Virus genome (UHGV): UHGV-0466892
Length of the DNA stretch: 41,858 bases
Direction: 5' to 3' (one strand)
From: a virus
Every line of letters starts with the position of its first letter. Positions within the stretch are counted from its first letter, which is position 1. The position numbers and the translations under genes were made by a program. The notes below the pieces were generated by a model that was not told where the DNA came from, ran no database searches, and saw nothing but the letters and a program-made list of their open reading frames with translations. This document shows positions 16,458-25,261 of this stretch, piece after piece.

Positions 16458-17231
16458 TCAGGCGAGATAAGAATGAGGGTTGGGGAAGACGATTTCTTTG
16501 TAACAGCGGCAGTTCGGCAGCTCACCAGCGTGACCGGTCATACCGTCAAGCGTTGGAGGTCGGCCCCATTCGACAAACTTACCTTCCATCTCCCGATGAG
16601 AATGCCGGACGTCGCCATCTTCGGCTGTACGCCAGATATAACCATTCGAGCCGATTGACAGCGCACGCGCCTGATCCAATGCACCGGTTGCGCGCCCAAG
16701 CTCAGTCCGGGCGATAAGGTTCGCTCGTGAGCGTGACACGTCACCGGAAGCAGCTATCTCTTTCGCGAATGGCTCAGCGCGGCCACCAGTTACTACAGCC
16801 TCGATGGCCTTGTTCTGAATGTCATACACCCGATCGGCGGCCTCAAGAGGCAGAGATTTGATGTACTTAATTTGCTCGGCGACGATGGATTTCATCACCT
16901 GGCCTACCGGGGCGCGGTCGACCATGTTGCGTAGTTCTGCGCTGATGTTCCGACTGTGCTGACGCCACTGCTTTTCATTCTGGCGCGCAATGTCGGCGGT
17001 GAAGCTCTCAGCAACCTTAGTCGCCCAGGGGGTGATGATTTCGCTGTAGCGCTCCAGCGCATCCATTATTTCGGTGACGCTATCGTTTGAACCATCGTAG
17101 CGACCATTTACGATATCCCCGACCGCCCGCGCTATCTGCCGTAGACTCGTTCGATATCGGATCTCCGCCTGGCGGCTCTGGCGGTTTGTCGCCAAGTTCG
17201 CCGATGCCTGGCGGCGCTTCGTCTTCGGCAT
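16458..17231 (-). CDS. head morphogenesis protein, Mu F / SPP1 gp7 family
   Basis: 257-aa ORF downstream of portal; its first ~50 codons overlap the portal 3' end in another frame; alternative start at Met56 near 17066. Confidence 0.7.
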   Translation of the reverse strand: MPKTKRRQASANLATNRQSRQAEIRYRTSLRQIARAVGDIVNGRYDGSNDSVTEIMDALERYSEIITPWATKVAESFTADIARQNEKQWRQHSRNISAELRNMVDRAPVGQVMKSIVAEQIKYIKSLPLEAADRVYDIQNKAIEAVVTGGRAEPFAKEIAASGDVSRSRANLIARTELGRATGALDQARALSIGSNGYIWRTAEDGDVRHSHREMEGKFVEWGRPPTLDGMTGHAGELPNCRCYKEIVFPNPHSYLA

Positions 17232-18549
17232 TCTCGATATCCTCGTCGGTAATGGATGCCCCGATGCCGGTGACGTCAGAGTTTTCGCGCAGGTCGGTCA
17301 TCGCCGCCTTACGCGTCATCAATCCGTCGCCCAGCGCGGTACTGATCGCGTTGGTGGTGTTTACGGCCACCGTTGATCGGTCAACGTCTGACATTTGCCA
17401 TAGCGGGTTAAACTCAAACGTGAAATCGTCCGGCAGCGGCTTTCCGAGTTCCGAGCGGTGCATAATGTCCAGTATCCGGCGCATCGGCAGCCGTAAGCGG
17501 CGCTCCTGCAATGAGCTCACCCGGTCGTAATAGTTGGCGAGGTCTGCATCACCAGTAGAGAAGCCTTTCGGGGATTGACCGAACAGGCGTACCAGCGGGA
17601 TACCAACGGCACCGCTGATCTGCTCAGCAAACTGCGAAAGAATGTCATCCAGACCACTAAAGCTGTACTGGTGGGTTTCGAACTTATCCCGCGAGTCCAT
17701 GAGCGTCATACCTTCATTGCTCTGGAACTGGCGGATCAGGTCGATGTTCTTCAGCAACGCTTCGAACGCCGGGCCTCCAAGCGCGATAAGCTCGCGCAAC
17801 TTCTCCACGCTATAGGTACGCAGATGCGCTTTATAGACCAGCTGCGCCGCGCCGACAGTAGCGCTATCGAACGCAGTAAGCCGATCCCAGATACGCTCTA
17901 CAACCGACATTCCCCATTCGTTTTCGGTCATCTTCTGCTGGAATGGCAGCGTCACCCCGTCGAAGCGAATCAGGCGGCTGTGATGGATGCGCCAGGCCGG
18001 GATGCCCGTTGCAGTGGTCACCACGTCGTAAAACTCAGGCTTGCCGAGGTCCGGCCCCATATCTTTAATGCGGCGGGTCAGCACCGGGTTAATCATCCAG
18101 CGGTCGAGCGGGAGAATGCCCTTAAACTTGCCTTCTCCAATGGTTTCGAGCCGCAACGGGGTCATTGGTGCCTGCCCCTCAATCATGATGAAGCCCACCG
18201 CGCCGCCGTAGAGACGCGACCATTTCAGCACGTCGTTCAGCGCATCCCAGATCTGCAACTCATCCAGCTGCGCTTCCAGGGTGCCACGGTCTTTGGCGTC
18301 AATCTCCGAAGTGATGCGAATGCCTTTCCGGGTCATATCGTCCGGGATAGCGTCGACCGCTTCGCCGATAACCCACGATCCGCGATATGACCATTCCACC
18401 AGCATGCGGTTGCGGCTGGTGAAGTTCGCCCGGTAGGTCGATGCTGAATGCTGGTTAGGCGTCTGCATCCCCACGCGGGCGACAAAGTTTTCATAGCCAT
18501 CAGCGGTGGCCTGCGCCGTTCGCTGAGAGGCTTGCTTGTTTCGTGCCAT
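17080..18549 (-). CDS. portal protein
   Basis: 489-aa ORF immediately after the large terminase gene; acidic C-terminus. Confidence 0.8.
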   Translation of the reverse strand: MARNKQASQRTAQATADGYENFVARVGMQTPNQHSASTYRANFTSRNRMLVEWSYRGSWVIGEAVDAIPDDMTRKGIRITSEIDAKDRGTLEAQLDELQIWDALNDVLKWSRLYGGAVGFIMIEGQAPMTPLRLETIGEGKFKGILPLDRWMINPVLTRRIKDMGPDLGKPEFYDVVTTATGIPAWRIHHSRLIRFDGVTLPFQQKMTENEWGMSVVERIWDRLTAFDSATVGAAQLVYKAHLRTYSVEKLRELIALGGPAFEALLKNIDLIRQFQSNEGMTLMDSRDKFETHQYSFSGLDDILSQFAEQISGAVGIPLVRLFGQSPKGFSTGDADLANYYDRVSSLQERRLRLPMRRILDIMHRSELGKPLPDDFTFEFNPLWQMSDVDRSTVAVNTTNAISTALGDGLMTRKAAMTDLRENSDVTGIGASITDEDIENAEDEAPPGIGELGDKPPEPPGGDPISNESTADSAGGRGYRKWSLRWFKR

Positions 18550-20177
18550 CAGGCCTGTCTCCCTAGCAGCTCCCAGATGTTCAGGGCTGAATTCATTGGC
18601 GCGTAGCTGATCATCACCGAGTCGGCGAGGTTCGGCGACTTGGTGCCGTCAGGCTGTTTATCAACAACGATTTTCCCCACACCGTTAATGGAATAGGTCG
18701 GTTGCGACAGCTCGATGATGAGTTTGTCTTTGCTCGCCATGGCGCTGCTGATTGAGATAATTTCGTCCGGGTTGTAGGCCATTCCCTCAACCACGGCGCG
18801 CCAGGTGTTCTGGAAAAGCTTGCGTAATTGCCACCAGCTCTGGGCCTTGGCGTTAGCAAAGAAGTCCTTGTTCAGGCGGGCGGCCTGTCCGTTGTCGCCG
18901 CGCACCGCTTCGTCGTCCGGATCAAACACCGCGCCGCTACCGCGAAACGGTGTGGCGAGTATTGACGGTCGGCGCGCAGCGTTACGCAGTTCGTTGATGG
19001 CGCGTGCATCGCCGCGAACGCCAGCGCCCAGGCCGTCCTCGTCGAAGCGAAATTCTTCGAGGTTGTCCTGTTCGCAAAAGCCGAAGACCTTCTCAACGGA
19101 CTGGTAAATGTCGCTGCCCACGCCGGACCATTCCCGCACGTTCTCCAGGAGGAAGCCGTGACGGGTCGAAAAGGCGTTTTTGTCCCGGCCTTCGTCGGCG
19201 ACGTCCATCGCGCCCAGTCGCTTGCCCGTTGGCTGAATACCAAGTTTGATATGCGCGTCGACGGCAGCCTGTACCCAGTCGGACGGGATCAGGACGCCTT
19301 CCGCAGATGCGCTGTAGTTCAGGTCAAGTTCCTGCGCCACCACCACCGGATTGTCGATTTTCTCGCACTCCCTGCGATACCACTCTTCATCCTTGCGCGG
19401 GTCATCTCGCCAGTGGAACGTGAATACTGGTATTTTTCCGCCGTGGCGCTTCTGCGCGAACGGGTTCGCCATGCCATTAACCGAGCTCAGGTCAATACGG
19501 CAACGGGTGGTTTGCGACAGCGCCGCATCAATCAACAGAGGACGCTGGAGGAATGCAGCTTCATCCACCAGGTAGAGCGTGGTACGGTCACCACGTCCGA
19601 TATTGTCGCCAGCCTCGCCTTTGATAACCGCGCCAGTATCGGGAAACTCAACGCGCATGTACGGCGCGTGCTTCTTCTCGTCCCACGAACCGCGAAACTC
19701 GACGGGCAGCGTTTCCACGAACTTGCGCGCCTTCCAGAACAGCGCCTTCGGGTCTCCGGTGCTGTCGACGTATTCCTCTTTACGGGAGCCGAAGCCGATG
19801 ACCATTTCTTTGTTGAAGAGGCAGAGCGAACAGGCCAGCCCGATCGCCGTCCAGCTGAGCCCCATTTCGCGGCTCTTTTCGGTGATGCCGTTCTCCAGCC
19901 GTTCGCGCCGCTCCATGATCCAGTGAATCCACTCTTCCTGTTTCGGAAACAGCAGAAAAGGGATGGTGACCGGCAGGCCATAATCGATGTTACGCGGGTC
20001 AGTAGTCATCCCCCAGTCGATGATGAACTGTGCCGGGTTGGTGCGGTAAAACTGCTTTAGCGCTGGCAGCATTTCAGGGTTCTGGCGAATGCGCTGTAAG
20101 CGCTCCATCCGCCATTCAAAAACCATCTGGTAATCAGGGTTTCTGAAATCGAATTCAAACGGGAGAGGCATGATCAC
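18549..20177 (-). CDS. terminase large subunit
   Basis: 542-aa ORF; position after the small subunit; Walker-like and nuclease-domain character; GTG start overlapping the TerS stop. Confidence 0.85.
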
Positions 20178-20647
20178 CCCATCATCTTGCGGTAAATCTC
20201 TGCGGCCTGATCTGCAGTGAGATTGGTCGTCTCGGTCTTGATCGGGCCGCCATCCTTGCCGGTGCTCTCAACCTTCAGCTTATTGGTGTAAGCGTCGCCA
20301 ACCTCTTTCGCGGCCTGTTCAATCAGCTGCGCCGTCAGGGAGAAGTTTTTCATCCCCTCGGTTTTGGTTGCCATGCGGTCAAGCACGCGGAGGCGATAGG
20401 ATTTGTTCGCGATCGGAATGTCGCTGGTTTCGGTCAGGAACCGTTCGCGCGTCGCGTGGAACATCTCGATCCACTTTTTGGCGAGCGTCTTACCGCTGGC
20501 CTTCGTGGGGTCGTGAGATTCAGCCTGCTGGCGGGTGATCTTGATCCCAAATTCTTTTTGGACAGCCTCGACCACCTGCGATGGCGTGTCATAGCACGCA
20601 AGCGACTGAATGATGAAGGCTTTCACATCAGGTTTTAATGCAGCCAT
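20174..20647 (-). CDS. terminase small subunit (putative)
   Basis: 157-aa ORF immediately upstream of TerL. Confidence 0.6.
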
Positions 20648-20678: not shown

Positions 20679-21299
20679 TTAAGCCAGTCGCAGCATGCAC
20701 GTCCCGCACGCTCTGGCAATATCGAGATGAGCAACCTCCGCTGGCTGATTCGCCGCATCAATCATTTCCTGCACGTCCCGGCTTGCACCGTAACGGCGAA
20801 CCACGCCCACAAACTCTTCCACGTCATGACCGCGCAGCTTCAGCTTTGGCTGCCCTTCCTGCGTGAACTTCGGCGCGCCAAATTCATCTGTCGCCTGGCA
20901 GATGTGATAAAGCTCGTGCTCTATCAGCGCGCAGAACTCCAGATCGGAACATTGCGAACAGTAATCGGCGGCGAGCGTGATGATGAAATGCGGCACCCTG
21001 CCGAACCATTCATACATCTGCTGCTCCATCCGCGCTTTCTGCCAGCCTCCGGCACGCATTGCCACTTCTTCCGCCTGCCCCAGCACGGAACGCCCTTTCT
21101 TCTCGAAAGCGTTCGACGCCCAGAGAAAGCACAGATCCGCTTCAAGCAAATGCTGGTGGTCAGGGTTGTAGAGGTCACCCTCATCGCTCAGGATGTGCTG
21201 ATTCAGCCACTCGCCAACGTCATTAGCGGGCATAATGCTGATGTACGGCTTCGGGTCAGGTGGCATCGTAAAATGCGCTGGTGGGTGTGGTCTGTTCAT
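20679..21299 (-). CDS. putative zinc metallopeptidase (HExxH)
   Basis: 206 aa; motif IEHELYHICQ contains HExxH; lies between the lysis cassette and terminase. Confidence 0.55.
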   Translation of the reverse strand: MNRPHPPAHFTMPPDPKPYISIMPANDVGEWLNQHILSDEGDLYNPDHQHLLEADLCFLWASNAFEKKGRSVLGQAEEVAMRAGGWQKARMEQQMYEWFGRVPHFIITLAADYCSQCSDLEFCALIEHELYHICQATDEFGAPKFTQEGQPKLKLRGHDVEEFVGVVRRYGASRDVQEMIDAANQPAEVAHLDIARACGTCMLRLA

Positions 21300-21353
21300 G
21301 AATAATTCCAGTGCTCCATTATCGAAGCCCCTCAGTGAAGGGCTTCTGTAATG

Positions 21354-21539
21354 TCAGTCCCGGACGAACGTAACCTTTGTGGTTATCATTCGCCGCACAA
21401 GGCGCGCCACTTCGCGTTGCATTTCATCAATTACTTTTGGCGTCAGTGGTTGATGCGCATATTTACGCTCAATCTCTGCAAAAATCCCGTTCAGCGCCTC
21501 GCTGCTTGGCGGGATAACTTCAACGTTTAATCGTGCCAT
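21354..21539 (-). CDS. small hypothetical protein
   Basis: 61-aa ORF downstream of the spanin genes; no recognisable motif. Confidence 0.3.
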   Translation of the reverse strand: MARLNVEVIPPSSEALNGIFAEIERKYAHQPLTPKVIDEMQREVARLVRRMITTKVTFVRD

Positions 21540-21798
21540 CGGTTTGTCCTGCCCTGTTGTTCTCGAAAGTCCTGATATCAGCCTTATCCCTGTTGCACTG
21601 TGCTAACGCTGACAACAACGCAACATTCAGGTTAAGGCTTGCTCCCCACGTAAACGGATCGGGTAAATCTGGCTGGGGTGTTTCAGCCGTCAGGTTGGCT
21701 GGTAACGGAACCACCGGAACTGGAACGTAGACCGTTCGCGTAGTCGTGCAGCCGCTTAACTGCGCCAGAAGGCACAAAACGAACAGCACAATCATCAT
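21520..21798 (-). CDS. o-spanin (Rz1-like outer-membrane lipoprotein), start at the internal MM
   Basis: Lipobox LAQLSGC after a hydrophobic leader (MMIVLFVLCLLAQLSGC), proline-rich body; begins inside the Rz gene in a different frame. Confidence 0.65.
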   Translation of the reverse strand: MMIVLFVLCLLAQLSGCTTTRTVYVPVPVVPLPANLTAETPQPDLPDPFTWGASLNLNVALLSALAQCNRDKADIRTFENNRAGQTDGTIKR

Positions 21799-22075
21799 CC
21801 GCAACAGCCACTTTGATATCTTCCTCGGTTCTCTGTGACTCCAGTGCGATCTGCTGCCTGGCATATTGATTTGTCTCCAGAATGATGTTCGTTATTGCTA
21901 CGGTGCGCAGGACATTCGCGGTGATGGTCTCAAAGGAATCAGCGCGCTGTTCTGCATCGTCAGCGCGCCGCTGTTCCTCCAGAAACTTTCCATGGTAATG
22001 ATTCGCTGACCAGACAAGACCACCAGCAATACAAGCAATAAACGTTAAAATGAGCGCCCAATAACTCATCTTCAT
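21683..22075 (-). CDS. i-spanin (Rz-like)
   Basis: 130 aa; N-terminal transmembrane helix then charged coiled-coil region; ATGA overlap with the endolysin stop. Confidence 0.7.
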   Translation of the reverse strand: MKMSYWALILTFIACIAGGLVWSANHYHGKFLEEQRRADDAEQRADSFETITANVLRTVAITNIILETNQYARQQIALESQRTEEDIKVAVADDDCAVRFVPSGAVKRLHDYANGLRSSSGGSVTSQPDG

Positions 22076-22686
22076 ACCAGCAGCGCCGCCCGCGCCTTGT
22101 TGTATCGGACCTTACGATCCTCAATACCGTTCAGACCGCCGTTAATGATGCGAGTAACACGATTAATATCGGCACCGTAGATCATGCAGCCTTTAGAGGT
22201 GTAGAACCATGCAGCTGAGCGCGCAGCCTGTAGTTCCTGTTCCAGTTGTTCAGGTGAAGTCACCAAATCTAACTTCAGAGCAGCCCCGCAGGTGCGATAA
22301 TTGTCGAGGCCAGTGATTTGAATTAACCCTCTGCCGCGATATTTCCAGCCGTCGCCGGGCGCTTTGTTACCCAGGCGGTTGCTATACACCAGATTGGCAA
22401 TAGCATCCTGACGAGCTGCATGTCCGGATGTTCTGCCAAGGGCATCAGCCTGCTGCTGTGTGATCCTCTTTCCGAACGTCGCCACCAGCGCAGATGGTGT
22501 GTAGTTCAAATTTTCAACTACAGCGCTAAAGCCACCAGACTCATGACCTACCTGAGCGATGAACATGGCCTGATCCGCGGGTGCTGTAATGCCGAATTCT
22601 TTCATCGCTGCATCTACTGGTTGAAACCAGCGCACAGCCAGTCCGGCGCTGATACCAGCCGCCTTTTGAAATAATTGTTGGTTCAT
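22072..22686 (-). CDS. endolysin, glycoside hydrolase family 19 (chitinase-like lysozyme)
   Basis: 204 aa; motif WKYRGRGLIQITGLDNYRTCG typical of GH19 phage endolysins; follows the holin genes. Confidence 0.85.
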   Translation of the reverse strand: MNQQLFQKAAGISAGLAVRWFQPVDAAMKEFGITAPADQAMFIAQVGHESGGFSAVVENLNYTPSALVATFGKRITQQQADALGRTSGHAARQDAIANLVYSNRLGNKAPGDGWKYRGRGLIQITGLDNYRTCGAALKLDLVTSPEQLEQELQAARSAAWFYTSKGCMIYGADINRVTRIINGGLNGIEDRKVRYNKARAALLV

Positions 22687-22967
22687 TAGTGCCTCAGATG
22701 ATCAACCAGGCGTGCAACGTTGCCTCTGACGGCCACCAGCACGGAAAGAAAAATAGTATTCGCCACGATAATGGGCCATGAGGAATGGGGATAAATCCCA
22801 CAGAGATAGGCCAACGGAACAGCACTGTATGTAACAGTAATCAGCCAGGCTAAACGTGAAACCCAAGGACGATGCCGCGAATCACCACGACGATAAAACA
22901 TCAGAGTAATAACAACACAAGCACATAACAGCGCGTTTATAGTTGCTGTCGGGTCATTTAGCTCCAC
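22686..22967 (-). CDS. holin/antiholin-like membrane protein
   Basis: 93 aa with 2-3 hydrophobic helices, between the first holin and the endolysin. Confidence 0.55.
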   Translation of the reverse strand: MELNDPTATINALLCACVVITLMFYRRGDSRHRPWVSRLAWLITVTYSAVPLAYLCGIYPHSSWPIIVANTIFLSVLVAVRGNVARLVDHLRH

Positions 22968-23340
22968 CTGAACCTCCCCGGCGCGTTATGAGCGCCACCA
23001 GCGACCCGATATCCTGATTATTCAGGAACGTCAGGATCTTAACGGCTAAAGCAGATACGATTACGGCACCAATGGCATCCAGAGGTTTATCACTGTATCC
23101 GGTCAAGCTTGCCAGCTTGGAGCCAACCAACCCAGAGCAAAGGATCCCGGCAATATACGACACGATAAAATATGCCAGTCGGCGCGATGCGCTCAGATCC
23201 GCTGCTGTTGCTATGTAGAATACAGTCCCTGCAAATGCGCCAAATACAACGCCGTAATCAGTTCCGGTCAGCAGTCCATAAACACTGGCACCCGTCAGGG
23301 CACCACCAGCCAGCCCAGTACCGGAAATTGGATCGGACAT
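22954..23340 (-). CDS. holin
   Basis: 128 aa, glycine-rich with multiple transmembrane segments; first gene of the lysis cassette. Confidence 0.6.
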   Translation of the reverse strand: MSDPISGTGLAGGALTGASVYGLLTGTDYGVVFGAFAGTVFYIATAADLSASRRLAYFIVSYIAGILCSGLVGSKLASLTGYSDKPLDAIGAVIVSALAVKILTFLNNQDIGSLVALITRRGGSGGAK

Positions 23341-23574: not shown

Positions 23575-23724
23575 ATGAGTGAATCAAACAAACCATCTGG
23601 AGAAAATAAGCCTCAACCCGCACCACAGCCTAAACCGGCTCCACAGCCAGCCGAAAGAAATCTGAGGACAGGTTATACCTTTGTTGCCGATTCTGCTGAA
23701 AACATCAGAAAAAAAGGTAAGTAA
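23575..23724 (+). CDS. candidate small proline-rich protein (49 aa), uncertain
   Basis: ATG at 23575 with GGAG 7 nt upstream; MSESNKPSGENKPQPAPQPKPAPQPAERNLRTGYTFVADSAENIRKKGK; 3' end overlaps the convergent minus-strand gene by 20 nt. Confidence 0.25.
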   Translation: MSESNKPSGENKPQPAPQPKPAPQPAERNLRTGYTFVADSAENIRKKGK

Positions 23725-24274
23725 GTACTGAGATTACAAGTGCACAAACAGGGGTGAGGATTGTAGCGATCCTTACCCTTTCTAGTTCTCGGCCTATTCT
23801 GGCATTCTCTTTTTTACTCATTTCAGCCATTCTGGTTAAATCCGCAAGCCGGTAGCGCCGCAAGACGTTCAATGTTGAACGCTTTCCTGAAAATCCTTTC
23901 GACTCAAAACCAGTGTAATCATCTTCAGTAAACCCTTTATAGTCATCATGGTAAAGCGCATAGGGTGTCGATGACACGAGAGCTCGTGACCTTACAACGA
24001 GGACGCAGCGAACAAGATAAGCCGCACACATTGCCCAGTAGACTAAAAAAACAGACATTCCAGCGGTGAGGTAATCAAAACCTGTACGTTGCGTTAATAA
24101 CAAAAATGACGAGCCCACGCCAGCAATGAGTATACTCAATAACTTCTGGCCATTTTCTTTGTTTAGTGCGTTGGACTGGTGAATTTCGCGTATACAATCC
24201 TCGCCCTGCTTCTCCAGAAAAGCAACGAGTTCGTCGTCCGCATCCAAAAAGTAATCATCGGGTAGATTATTCAT
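23705..24274 (-). CDS. membrane protein of unknown function (cargo gene between Q and the lysis cassette)
   Basis: 189 aa; acidic N-terminal segment, two central transmembrane helices and a C-terminal hydrophobic anchor; ATG at 24274; flanked by terminator-like hairpins. Confidence 0.6.
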   Translation of the reverse strand: MNNLPDDYFLDADDELVAFLEKQGEDCIREIHQSNALNKENGQKLLSILIAGVGSSFLLLTQRTGFDYLTAGMSVFLVYWAMCAAYLVRCVLVVRSRALVSSTPYALYHDDYKGFTEDDYTGFESKGFSGKRSTLNVLRRYRLADLTRMAEMSKKENARIGRELERVRIATILTPVCALVISVLTYLFF

Positions 24275-24478: not shown

Positions 24479-25261
24479 TTACCGCGTTATCTGCTTAAGC
24501 TGTTTTTCGGCCCAGGACTCTTCGATATCAAATTTCGTGATCAGCAGGTCGTAGAATGGCTTAACAGACTTTTTCCAGGTGTCCAGGCTAATGGCGTCAG
24601 TAATCTGGCATACAGCAGCATAGGCTTCAGTCGACGGAAGTCGTTCATACCCACGCCCTCCGCAGCGCTTACAGTCAGCCAGAACAGGAACGCCCTGTTT
24701 CTCAGTAAGAGCCTGGTTCACTGCCTTGCCGCGCCCATGGCAATCACTGCAAGAAGCACTAACCACACCAGAGCCATTACACTTTTTGCATAGCACTTTG
24801 ATGGATTCTTTGACCTTCACCATCCCGGACACGGTCATTTTCCCTTCTGGCTTACGGAATTTATTGGTAAACACGTCAGCCTCAATGAAGCCCTGACCGT
24901 CACAACAATCGCACTGCTTCACGCTGGCAGCGCTGCGGGAATAGTCCTCAAAAGCGAAGGTGGCCAACTGGTGCATCACCTGAGGTTTAACCGCGGCACC
25001 GAGCTTACGCAGTGCGGCAACCTTGTCGCATTTTGTCATCGCGTACTCAGCCAGCAGACCGATCGCCCGATCCCGGTCGTTATTGCTTATGCCCATCTTG
25101 CCGAGGAAGGCGCTGTAACCCATTGCGGCGCGTTCCTGCGTCATGCCCATGGCAGCCATTATGTCGGTACCGGTCAGTGAATCGGAGGCGGTAGCGCGCG
25201 GAGAATCGCTAATCAGTGTGGATTTAGCGAAGTGGTATTTCACTGTGTTTTCAAGGTTCAT
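24479..25261 (-). CDS. Q: late-gene antitermination protein Q
   Basis: 260 aa; Cys-rich zinc-binding region (CDCCDGQG ... CKKCNGSG ... CSDCHGRG ... CKRCGGRG); located between RusA and the lysis genes as in lambdoid phages. Confidence 0.8.
   Translation of the reverse strand: MNLENTVKYHFAKSTLISDSPRATASDSLTGTDIMAAMGMTQERAAMGYSAFLGKMGISNNDRDRAIGLLAEYAMTKCDKVAALRKLGAAVKPQVMHQLATFAFEDYSRSAASVKQCDCCDGQGFIEADVFTNKFRKPEGKMTVSGMVKVKESIKVLCKKCNGSGVVSASCSDCHGRGKAVNQALTEKQGVPVLADCKRCGGRGYERLPSTEAYAAVCQITDAISLDTWKKSVKPFYDLLITKFDIEESWAEKQLKQITR

Follow-up and report, generated by a model that had tools for sequence, protein, structure and literature searches.

The virus genome UHGV-0466892 (41,858 nucleotides; the whole stretch of DNA that was analysed, referred to below as the window) contains, between its lysis genes and its terminase genes, a gene for a protein of 206 amino acids (aa), which an original prediction made from the sequence alone had described as metallopeptidase-like because of an HELYH motif of the HExxH type. 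Both the open reading frame (ORF) and its placement were borne out: the ORF list and the reading of the DNA give HELYH at aa 128-132, and the gene is flanked by Rz/Rz1 and a 61-aa ORF on one side and by the terminase genes on the other. The protein, hereafter called the zincin, is a member of the family PF18894, and its gene appears to be one of two that move together as a cassette. The zincin gene comes first; the second gene codes for a protein with a DUF2280 domain, predicted to be the small terminase (TerS), and is itself followed by the gene for the large terminase (TerL). The zincin gene is already known, in the sense that it belongs to a catalogued family with an existing product name, and as an HExxH protein the zincin is ordinary; the informative part is its surroundings.

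The metallopeptidase family and its predicted fold

The zincin is a full-length member of PF18894 (E 2.8e-43, 147.7 bits compared with a Pfam gathering cut-off of 23.7), residues 30-184 aligning to positions 2-134 of the 134-position profile. There is no sequence difference that would set it apart from this family, which is described as 'putative phage metallopeptidase' ('putative metallopeptidase' in RefSeq) and is without a described function. Homologues form 3499 clusters at 90% identity (E up to 1e-3), and an exhaustive search gave 907 at 50% identity; conservation was assessed in an alignment of 88 diverse full-length homologues sharing 33-53% identity with the window protein. The N-terminus has a conserved M-x-R-P-x-P-P in this alignment, and the ATG start of the gene is backed by M1, which is found in 85 of the 88 homologues and is followed by the conserved R-P-x-P-P. 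Residues H128, E129, H132, H158, G171, C198 and G199 are invariant, while H48, H50, L51, W60, W86, T108, L130, D159, E161, F163 and C201 (78/88) are nearly so.

HExxH was present in 140 of 150 cluster representatives; nine of the other ten are fragments, cut short or frameshifted, and the last, P0203, has HELYY in its place. The median pairwise ratio of nonsynonymous to synonymous substitution rates (dN/dS), calculated for 72 non-redundant relatives, is 0.07 for the zincin gene compared with 0.155 for the adjacent TerS gene. The gene is therefore functional and strongly constrained, and its HExxH is no chance occurrence. The original prediction was to be given up if the motif proved not to be conserved in homologues, and in this respect it stands, H128, E129 and H132 being invariant. 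The invariant histidine downstream of HExxH, H158, is the putative third metal ligand, and the near-invariant H48-x-H50 is possibly a second metal site. A distant homologue of 173 aa, from Bordetella phage PHB04 (L084), keeps HxH and lacks CxxC, its sequence ending before the CxxC site.

An AlphaFold2 model obtained from the 88-homologue alignment (mean predicted local distance difference test score, pLDDT, 94.1; predicted template modelling score, pTM, 0.87) comprises a beta-sheet (residues 56-61, 65-67, 70-72, 74-78 and 105-110), a backing helix (85-99) and a further helix (119-131) which bears the start of HExxH at its C-terminal end, the overall arrangement being that of a zincin. The elements that define a Peptidase_MA-like fold, a mixed sheet with a backing helix and an HExxH active-site helix, are all present in the model. 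The homology and structure search for a zincin fold proposed with the original prediction thus gave the PF18894 match and, as the closest structures, minimal zincins: the structural-match figures were 7.8 for projannalysin, 6.9 for the SprT domain of Spartan, 6.9 for selecase, 6.5 for proabylysin and 6.3 for BepA, followed by YbeY (5.9), Wss1 (5.3), CapP (3.6) and ArdC (3.6), with matches spanning about 90 of the 206 residues at 12-15% identity. A Foldseek search of the model against the PDB returned no match below E 0.1, and searches of PDB sequences with the single protein and with the 88-sequence profile returned none at all. Apart from further PF18894 proteins, BFVD yielded only weak matches, either SprT-like or to Bacillus phage G, and NCBIfam yielded none.

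The likeness to the minigluzincins (projannalysin 4jix, proabylysin 4jiu, selecase 4qhf) and to the M48/M56 cores (BepA, HtpX, BlaR1) is limited to the residues aligned structurally, with no relationship at the sequence level, and the zincin has additional conserved RPxPP, DHxHL, GHDVEEF and CGxC elements, which were not seen in either group, and is encoded in the context of a phage packaging module. From SprT, Spartan and Wss1 it differs in its spacing of 25 residues to the putative third ligand, and no Pfam SprT-like or WLM match was obtained for it at E up to 1. As modelled, the protein would thus consist of a minimal zincin core with family-specific additions, and we do not place it in any characterised peptidase family. 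The metallopeptidase-like identity originally proposed agrees with the PF18894 membership, the invariant HExxH and downstream histidine and the confident zincin-like model, and we infer that the zincin is an active Zn-dependent metallopeptidase.

Linkage to the DUF2280 small terminase

The DUF2280 gene starts 31 nt past the zincin stop codon and its own stop codon abuts the start of TerL. The DUF2280 protein is predicted to be the small terminase because it abuts TerL, because the window ORF list contains no other TerS candidate between the two genes, and because its C-terminal tail is shared with a TerS of the Terminase_2 type. This TerS (PF03592) is that of Escherichia phage vB_EcoM-606R2, whose TerL is 97% identical to the window TerL. 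The two TerS proteins have only their last 39 aa in common, at 64% identity, the N-terminal 118 aa of the DUF2280 protein being unrelated to the Terminase_2 protein; in vB_EcoM-606R2, TerS directly follows the lysis genes and there is no zincin. This comparison points to the window TerS being a chimera of a DUF2280 N-domain and a TerL-matched tail. The zincin would accordingly seem to come and go with the DUF2280 N-domain (aa 1-102), which is the predicted DNA-recognition domain of this TerS. Apart from the question of the zincin, the window TerS is a clean case of domain shuffling at the boundary between a DNA-binding domain and a TerL-binding tail.

To follow the pair beyond the window, loci were taken from IMG/VR (80 with the window-type protein and 11 obtained with a divergent query), from GTDB species genomes (80) and from metagenomes (8); the zincin and DUF2280 were detected in them with hidden Markov models (HMMs) built here, and ORFs were called mechanically. 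A DUF2280 ORF lies downstream of the zincin on the same strand in 173 of the 177 zincin-bearing loci, including all 83 loci of close and mid-range relatives and 88 of the 91 diverse loci (L089-L179); a single contig among the exceptions gives an ambiguous picture. The pairing spans Proteobacteria (Alpha- and Betaproteobacteria included), Acidobacteriota, Armatimonadota and Chloroflexota. The gap between the two genes is at most 60 nt in 137 of the 173 pairs and 61-300 nt in 14, and is longer in the remaining 22, where an extra gene is inserted.

Among cultured phages the zincin occurs in 144 GenBank records (62 from phages of Acinetobacter, 44 of Pseudomonas, eight of Klebsiella, eight of Vibrio, seven of Burkholderia, and others), and the counts per genus are nearly identical for the zincin and DUF2280, with the exception of a Salinibacter clade. 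In the phages ZF40, JBD44, AM106 and Athena1 and in a Rhizobium phage, the zincin gene lies directly 5' of the DUF2280 gene, which is followed by TerL, while the genes on its other side vary (Mom/theta, holin, Vsr-like endonuclease, small ORFs). The general rule is that PF18894 genes are found just 5' of terminase genes; those of the family's main branch are paired specifically with DUF2280.

The similarity of the two proteins was compared with that of TerL, for which the first ORF after DUF2280 that reached 350 aa was taken, for pairs drawn from 155 loci. Similarity between zincins follows that between DUF2280 N-domains (Spearman 0.78) and hardly that between TerLs (Spearman 0.15), whereas the part of TerS beyond residue 100 varies in step with TerL (Pearson 0.83). 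The 155 TerL ORFs fall into two large groups (79 and 68) that are unrelated by BLAST and four small ones (4, 2, 1 and 1), the two singleton ORFs not resembling terminases, and only 25% of TerL pairs are detectably similar. Terminase_3 and Terminase_6 types were found among four TerLs checked individually in Pfam, where the window-type and ZF40-type TerLs matched no terminase family.

In about one in six of the cluster representatives (24/150, e.g., P0130, P0131, P0133, P0144 and P0186), RPxPP is preceded by an N-terminal extension of 45-60 aa and a variable, often acidic linker; the extension is absent from the window zincin. The extensions give sub-threshold matches to helix-turn-helix families (HTH_Tnp_1, 5e-5; HTH_8, 6.5e-5; MerR, HTH_28 and HTH_23). 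Two loci with such an extension were recovered, one from Armatimonadota (L176, 4938-5858) and one from a metagenome (L180, 595-1398), and both have a downstream DUF2280 and a TerL-sized ORF. A Rosetta-stone reading, in which the extension would be a fused copy of the neighbouring DNA-binding domain, was rejected on account of its lack of homology to the DUF2280 N-domain (hhalign probability 0.2%). Since no zincin-DUF2280 fusions were present among the 150 representatives either, the extension is more probably an added DNA-binding module. No neighbouring ORF in 179 loci was matched by an HMM of the extension, so a separate upstream helix-turn-helix gene was not detected there.

Module boundary and neighbouring genes

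The features of the region are listed in Table 1. By its gene content (integrase, RecE-like exonuclease, RusA, antiterminator Q, Mu-F-like head protein and PF09950 capsid protein) the window is a lambdoid prophage of E. coli, and the 1.5 kb around the zincin gene are 100% identical to E. coli strain AR_0119, where the Prokaryotic Genome Annotation Pipeline (PGAP) names the products 'putative metallopeptidase', 'DUF2280 domain-containing protein' and 'bacteriophage TerL protein'. The likely start of the window TerL is the third codon of the listed ORF, in agreement with a homologue of 540 aa.

Homology to Citrobacter phage Omnitron (98%, megablast) stops at window position 21353, 54 nt 5' of the zincin start codon and at an imperfect inverted repeat, while in two Klebsiella phages nucleotide homology is restricted to the zincin-DUF2280 pair. 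The position of this joint upstream of the zincin gene, together with homology to the pair only, indicates that the gene belongs to the packaging module. The original prediction had considered its position to be one not required by either function, and this view is not supported given the tight link to the DUF2280 TerS, which is independent of TerL type, and given the joint. The inverted repeat is without a T-run on the minus strand and was not called as a terminator; it may mark the recombination joint or reflect mRNA structure. A scan for terminators called none between Rz1 and the zincin gene, and a strong terminator-like hairpin lies upstream of the holin genes (23482-23463, minus strand), so that the zincin gene is probably included in the late transcript that depends on Q.

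Table 1. Features of the window around the zincin gene, in order of position, with the related small terminase locus in the last line
Feature	Position	Strand	Remarks
Portal, Phage_portal_3	17080-18549	-	
TerL, 542 aa as listed	18549-20177	-	PHROG 2
DUF2280 protein, 157 aa, predicted small terminase	20174-20647	-	Pfam DUF2280, E 5e-50
Zincin gene, PF18894 PhageMetallopep, 206 aa	20679-21299	-	ATG-initiated ORF in mechanical ORF list; first gene of the predicted packaging module
C198-G-T-C201, C-terminal motif	20697-20708	-	C198 and G199 invariant; C201 78/88
H158-D159-V-E161-E162 block ('GHDVEEF')	20814-20828	-	H158 88/88, D159 84/88, E161 86/88
HELYH, aa 128-132	20904-20918	-	Predicted zincin metal-binding/catalytic motif, C-terminal end of predicted helix 119-131; codons CAC GAG CTT TAT CAC (reverse complement, read from DNA)
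H48-x-H50 ('DHxHL')	21150-21158	-	Near-invariant: H48 86/88, H50 84/88
Imperfect inverted repeat, 18-nt arms, 83% complementary	21317-21353		Within the 54-nt spacer 5' of the zincin gene
61-aa ORF, PHROG 12811 (E 3e-35)	21354-21539	-	Between Rz1 and zincin gene; lysis side of the mosaic joint
Rz1/LysC	21520-21864	-	
Rz	21683-22075	-	
GH19 endolysin	22072-22686	-	
3TM holin (Phage_holin_3_7)	22686-22967	-	
Phage_holin_8 holin	22954-23340	-	
189-aa protein, PHROG 11870	23705-24274	-	Hydrophobic stretches; no Pfam or PADLOC match
Antiterminator Q (PF03589)	24479-25261	-	Four CxxCxGxG DnaJ-type zinc-finger repeats
Terminase_2 TerS	L088, 3548-4120		Tail matches window 20174-20290 (C-terminal 39 aa of DUF2280 protein)

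Two further features of the late region were observed. The endolysin gene is preceded by two genes of distinct holin families in tandem (22686-23340, minus strand), which overlap by 14 nt. The gene for the 189-aa protein lies between the Q gene and a tR'-like terminator ahead of the lysis cassette and has a terminator-like hairpin on either side (24382-24355 and 23482-23463), a moron-like position.

Possible roles in packaging

The explanation that we favour tentatively is that the zincin, as an active metallopeptidase, works with or on the initiation complex formed by TerS and DNA. Small zincins encoded beside, or fused to, the helix-turn-helix DNA-binding protein that they cleave are known from ImmA/ImmR, IrrE/DdrO and BlaR1/BlaI, and the arrangement in the window resembles these systems, the neighbour here being a protein with a predicted TerS DNA-binding domain; SprT and Spartan, which are DNA-dependent proteases, provide another analogue. 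Beyond the conserved site and the linkage to DUF2280, the helix-turn-helix-like extensions of some relatives speak for an association with DNA. The zincin would be made late, from the Q-dependent late operon and as the first gene of the packaging module, and would form with the DUF2280 TerS a conserved, horizontally mobile two-gene cassette whichever TerL, portal or lysis genes surround it. The zincin might process or turn over TerS or, alternatively, might remove a protein bound to the DNA where packaging starts; protein processing, one of the roles suggested in the original prediction, would thus be possible in the context of packaging. In a bolder version, about which we are doubtful, a widespread class of terminases would have the zincin as a third, obligatory component: as the specific protease partner of the DUF2280 DNA-recognition domain, it would cleave TerS or a pac-bound protein and so control how headful packaging is initiated, and the 'small terminase' would be a two-gene unit that moves between unrelated motors.

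Several observations weigh against a role of the zincin in packaging, or against its being a general one. The 80 IMG/VR loci of the window type (L004-L083) are closely related to the window and do not count as independent samples. DUF2280 is found at 33% identity in 181 Salinibacter phage records that are not among the zincin matches, and at one Salinibacter locus examined there was no zincin homologue within 4 kb, which means that the zincin is not universally required by a DUF2280 TerS. In two Brevundimonas loci (L108, 5640-5978, and L111, 5611-5964) the zincin gene is followed after 22 nt by the gene for another small, arginine/glycine-rich TerS-like protein and then by TerL; this protein has 112-117 aa, begins MARGGKRPGAGRKPG, has no Pfam match and presumably represents another TerS type that captured the zincin. 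Short homologues (31-33% identity) in Bordetella phage PHB04 and in a plasmid-prophage of Rhodovastum lie 1-2 kb 5' of terminases of the GpA type, without DUF2280. The literature searched contained no publication on the function of PF18894 or DUF2280, and the synteny itself could also stem from a cis-acting site. As a separate observation, the gene upstream of the DUF2280 terminase in Salinibacter phage 2_3 (L087, 3432-4480) codes for an apparently multi-pass membrane protein of 172 aa.

The cis-acting site just mentioned is the basis of the alternative that survives best, which we nevertheless consider rather unlikely. According to it, recombination rarely parts the two genes because a site that the DUF2280 domain recognises, whether pac or some other, lies in or near the zincin gene, while the late function of the protease would lie elsewhere, for instance in host takeover, in anti-defence or in the processing of another phage protein. 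It is in its favour that pac sites are commonly located in or near TerS genes, as in P22 and SPP1, that DUF2280 terminases occur without a zincin gene, and that synonymous codons vary less on average in the zincin gene (mean diversity ~0.6, dipping mildly at codons 1-20 and 191-205) than in the DUF2280 gene (~0.72). However, no sharp synonymous trough was seen in 72 non-redundant gene pairs, although this is a weak test given that pac sites co-vary with TerS, and no repeat array was present in or near the gene, the only repeats inside the genes being two-copy ones at chance level. The pairing also outlives inserted genes, 36 of the 173 loci having gaps of more than 60 nt, and it spans phyla between which no DNA similarity remains; the strong co-divergence at the protein level likewise weighs against this alternative. 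An anti-defence role receives no support from PADLOC, whose defence and anti-defence models gave no match to the zincin at E up to 0.01; the late-stage host takeover put forward in the original prediction finds no backing there either, nor in the genomic context, which offers nothing except terminase genes.

An improbable alternative is that the zincin is a metal-dependent, nucleic-acid-processing terminase accessory built on a zincin-like scaffold, as is the RNase YbeY. HNH endonucleases of the HK97 gp74 type are accessory genes of cos-type terminases, and the analogy lies in an extra small metal-binding protein that is encoded beside the terminase genes and inherited together with them. The zincin differs from these in fold and motif, and is linked to the DNA-recognition domain of TerS and not to TerL. 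Its motif is a peptidase-type HExxH with an invariant glutamate and not the H-x3-H-x5-H of YbeY, its best structural matches are peptidases, no HNH or other nuclease family was matched in Pfam, and the downstream TerLs that were checked bear RNaseH-like nuclease domains of their own.

It is very improbable that the zincin acts as an ImmA/IrrE-type (COG2856) regulatory protease, cleaving the DUF2280 protein as a helix-turn-helix regulator, and not as a terminase, and so switching on packaging or late functions. No Pfam match to Peptidase_M78/ImmA was obtained; the zincin gene is part of the late operon, at a distance from the immunity region, and its neighbour, instead of being an XRE-type repressor, occupies the position of TerS, abutting TerL with no rival candidate between them and sharing its tail with the Terminase_2 TerS that accompanies the 97%-identical TerL.

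Finally, the zincin is almost certainly no transposase, despite being labelled as such in PHROG 513 and in the GenBank records of ZF40 (gp39), JBD44 (gp16), phiPSA1, YMC11/02/R656 and vB_AbaS_TRS1: neither Pfam nor NCBIfam shows a transposase catalytic or DNA-binding domain in it, the weak HTH_Tnp_1-like matches are confined to the N-terminal extension of some relatives, and we reject the identity as a propagated misannotation that is contradicted by the PF18894 membership and the zincin fold. The label originates from the ZF40 genome paper, which itself doubted a role in transposition (PMC3391216). The same paper scored the ZF40 terminase as 'L only' (PMC3391216); the TerS scored there as missing is the DUF2280 gene gp40.

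In the literature searched we found no mention of the pairing of PF18894 with DUF2280 or of the movement of this pair between unrelated large terminases. If the zincin does act with or on the TerS-DNA complex in the initiation of packaging, proteolysis would be a further accessory activity of terminases, next to HNH nucleases and host factors, and the TerS reported to be missing in phages such as ZF40 would be accounted for. In PHROG 513 and several GenBank records the name 'transposase' should be corrected, and DUF2280 proteins could be annotated as small terminases. The zincin-DUF2280 pair may also serve as a useful marker of where the packaging module begins in prophages from many phyla.

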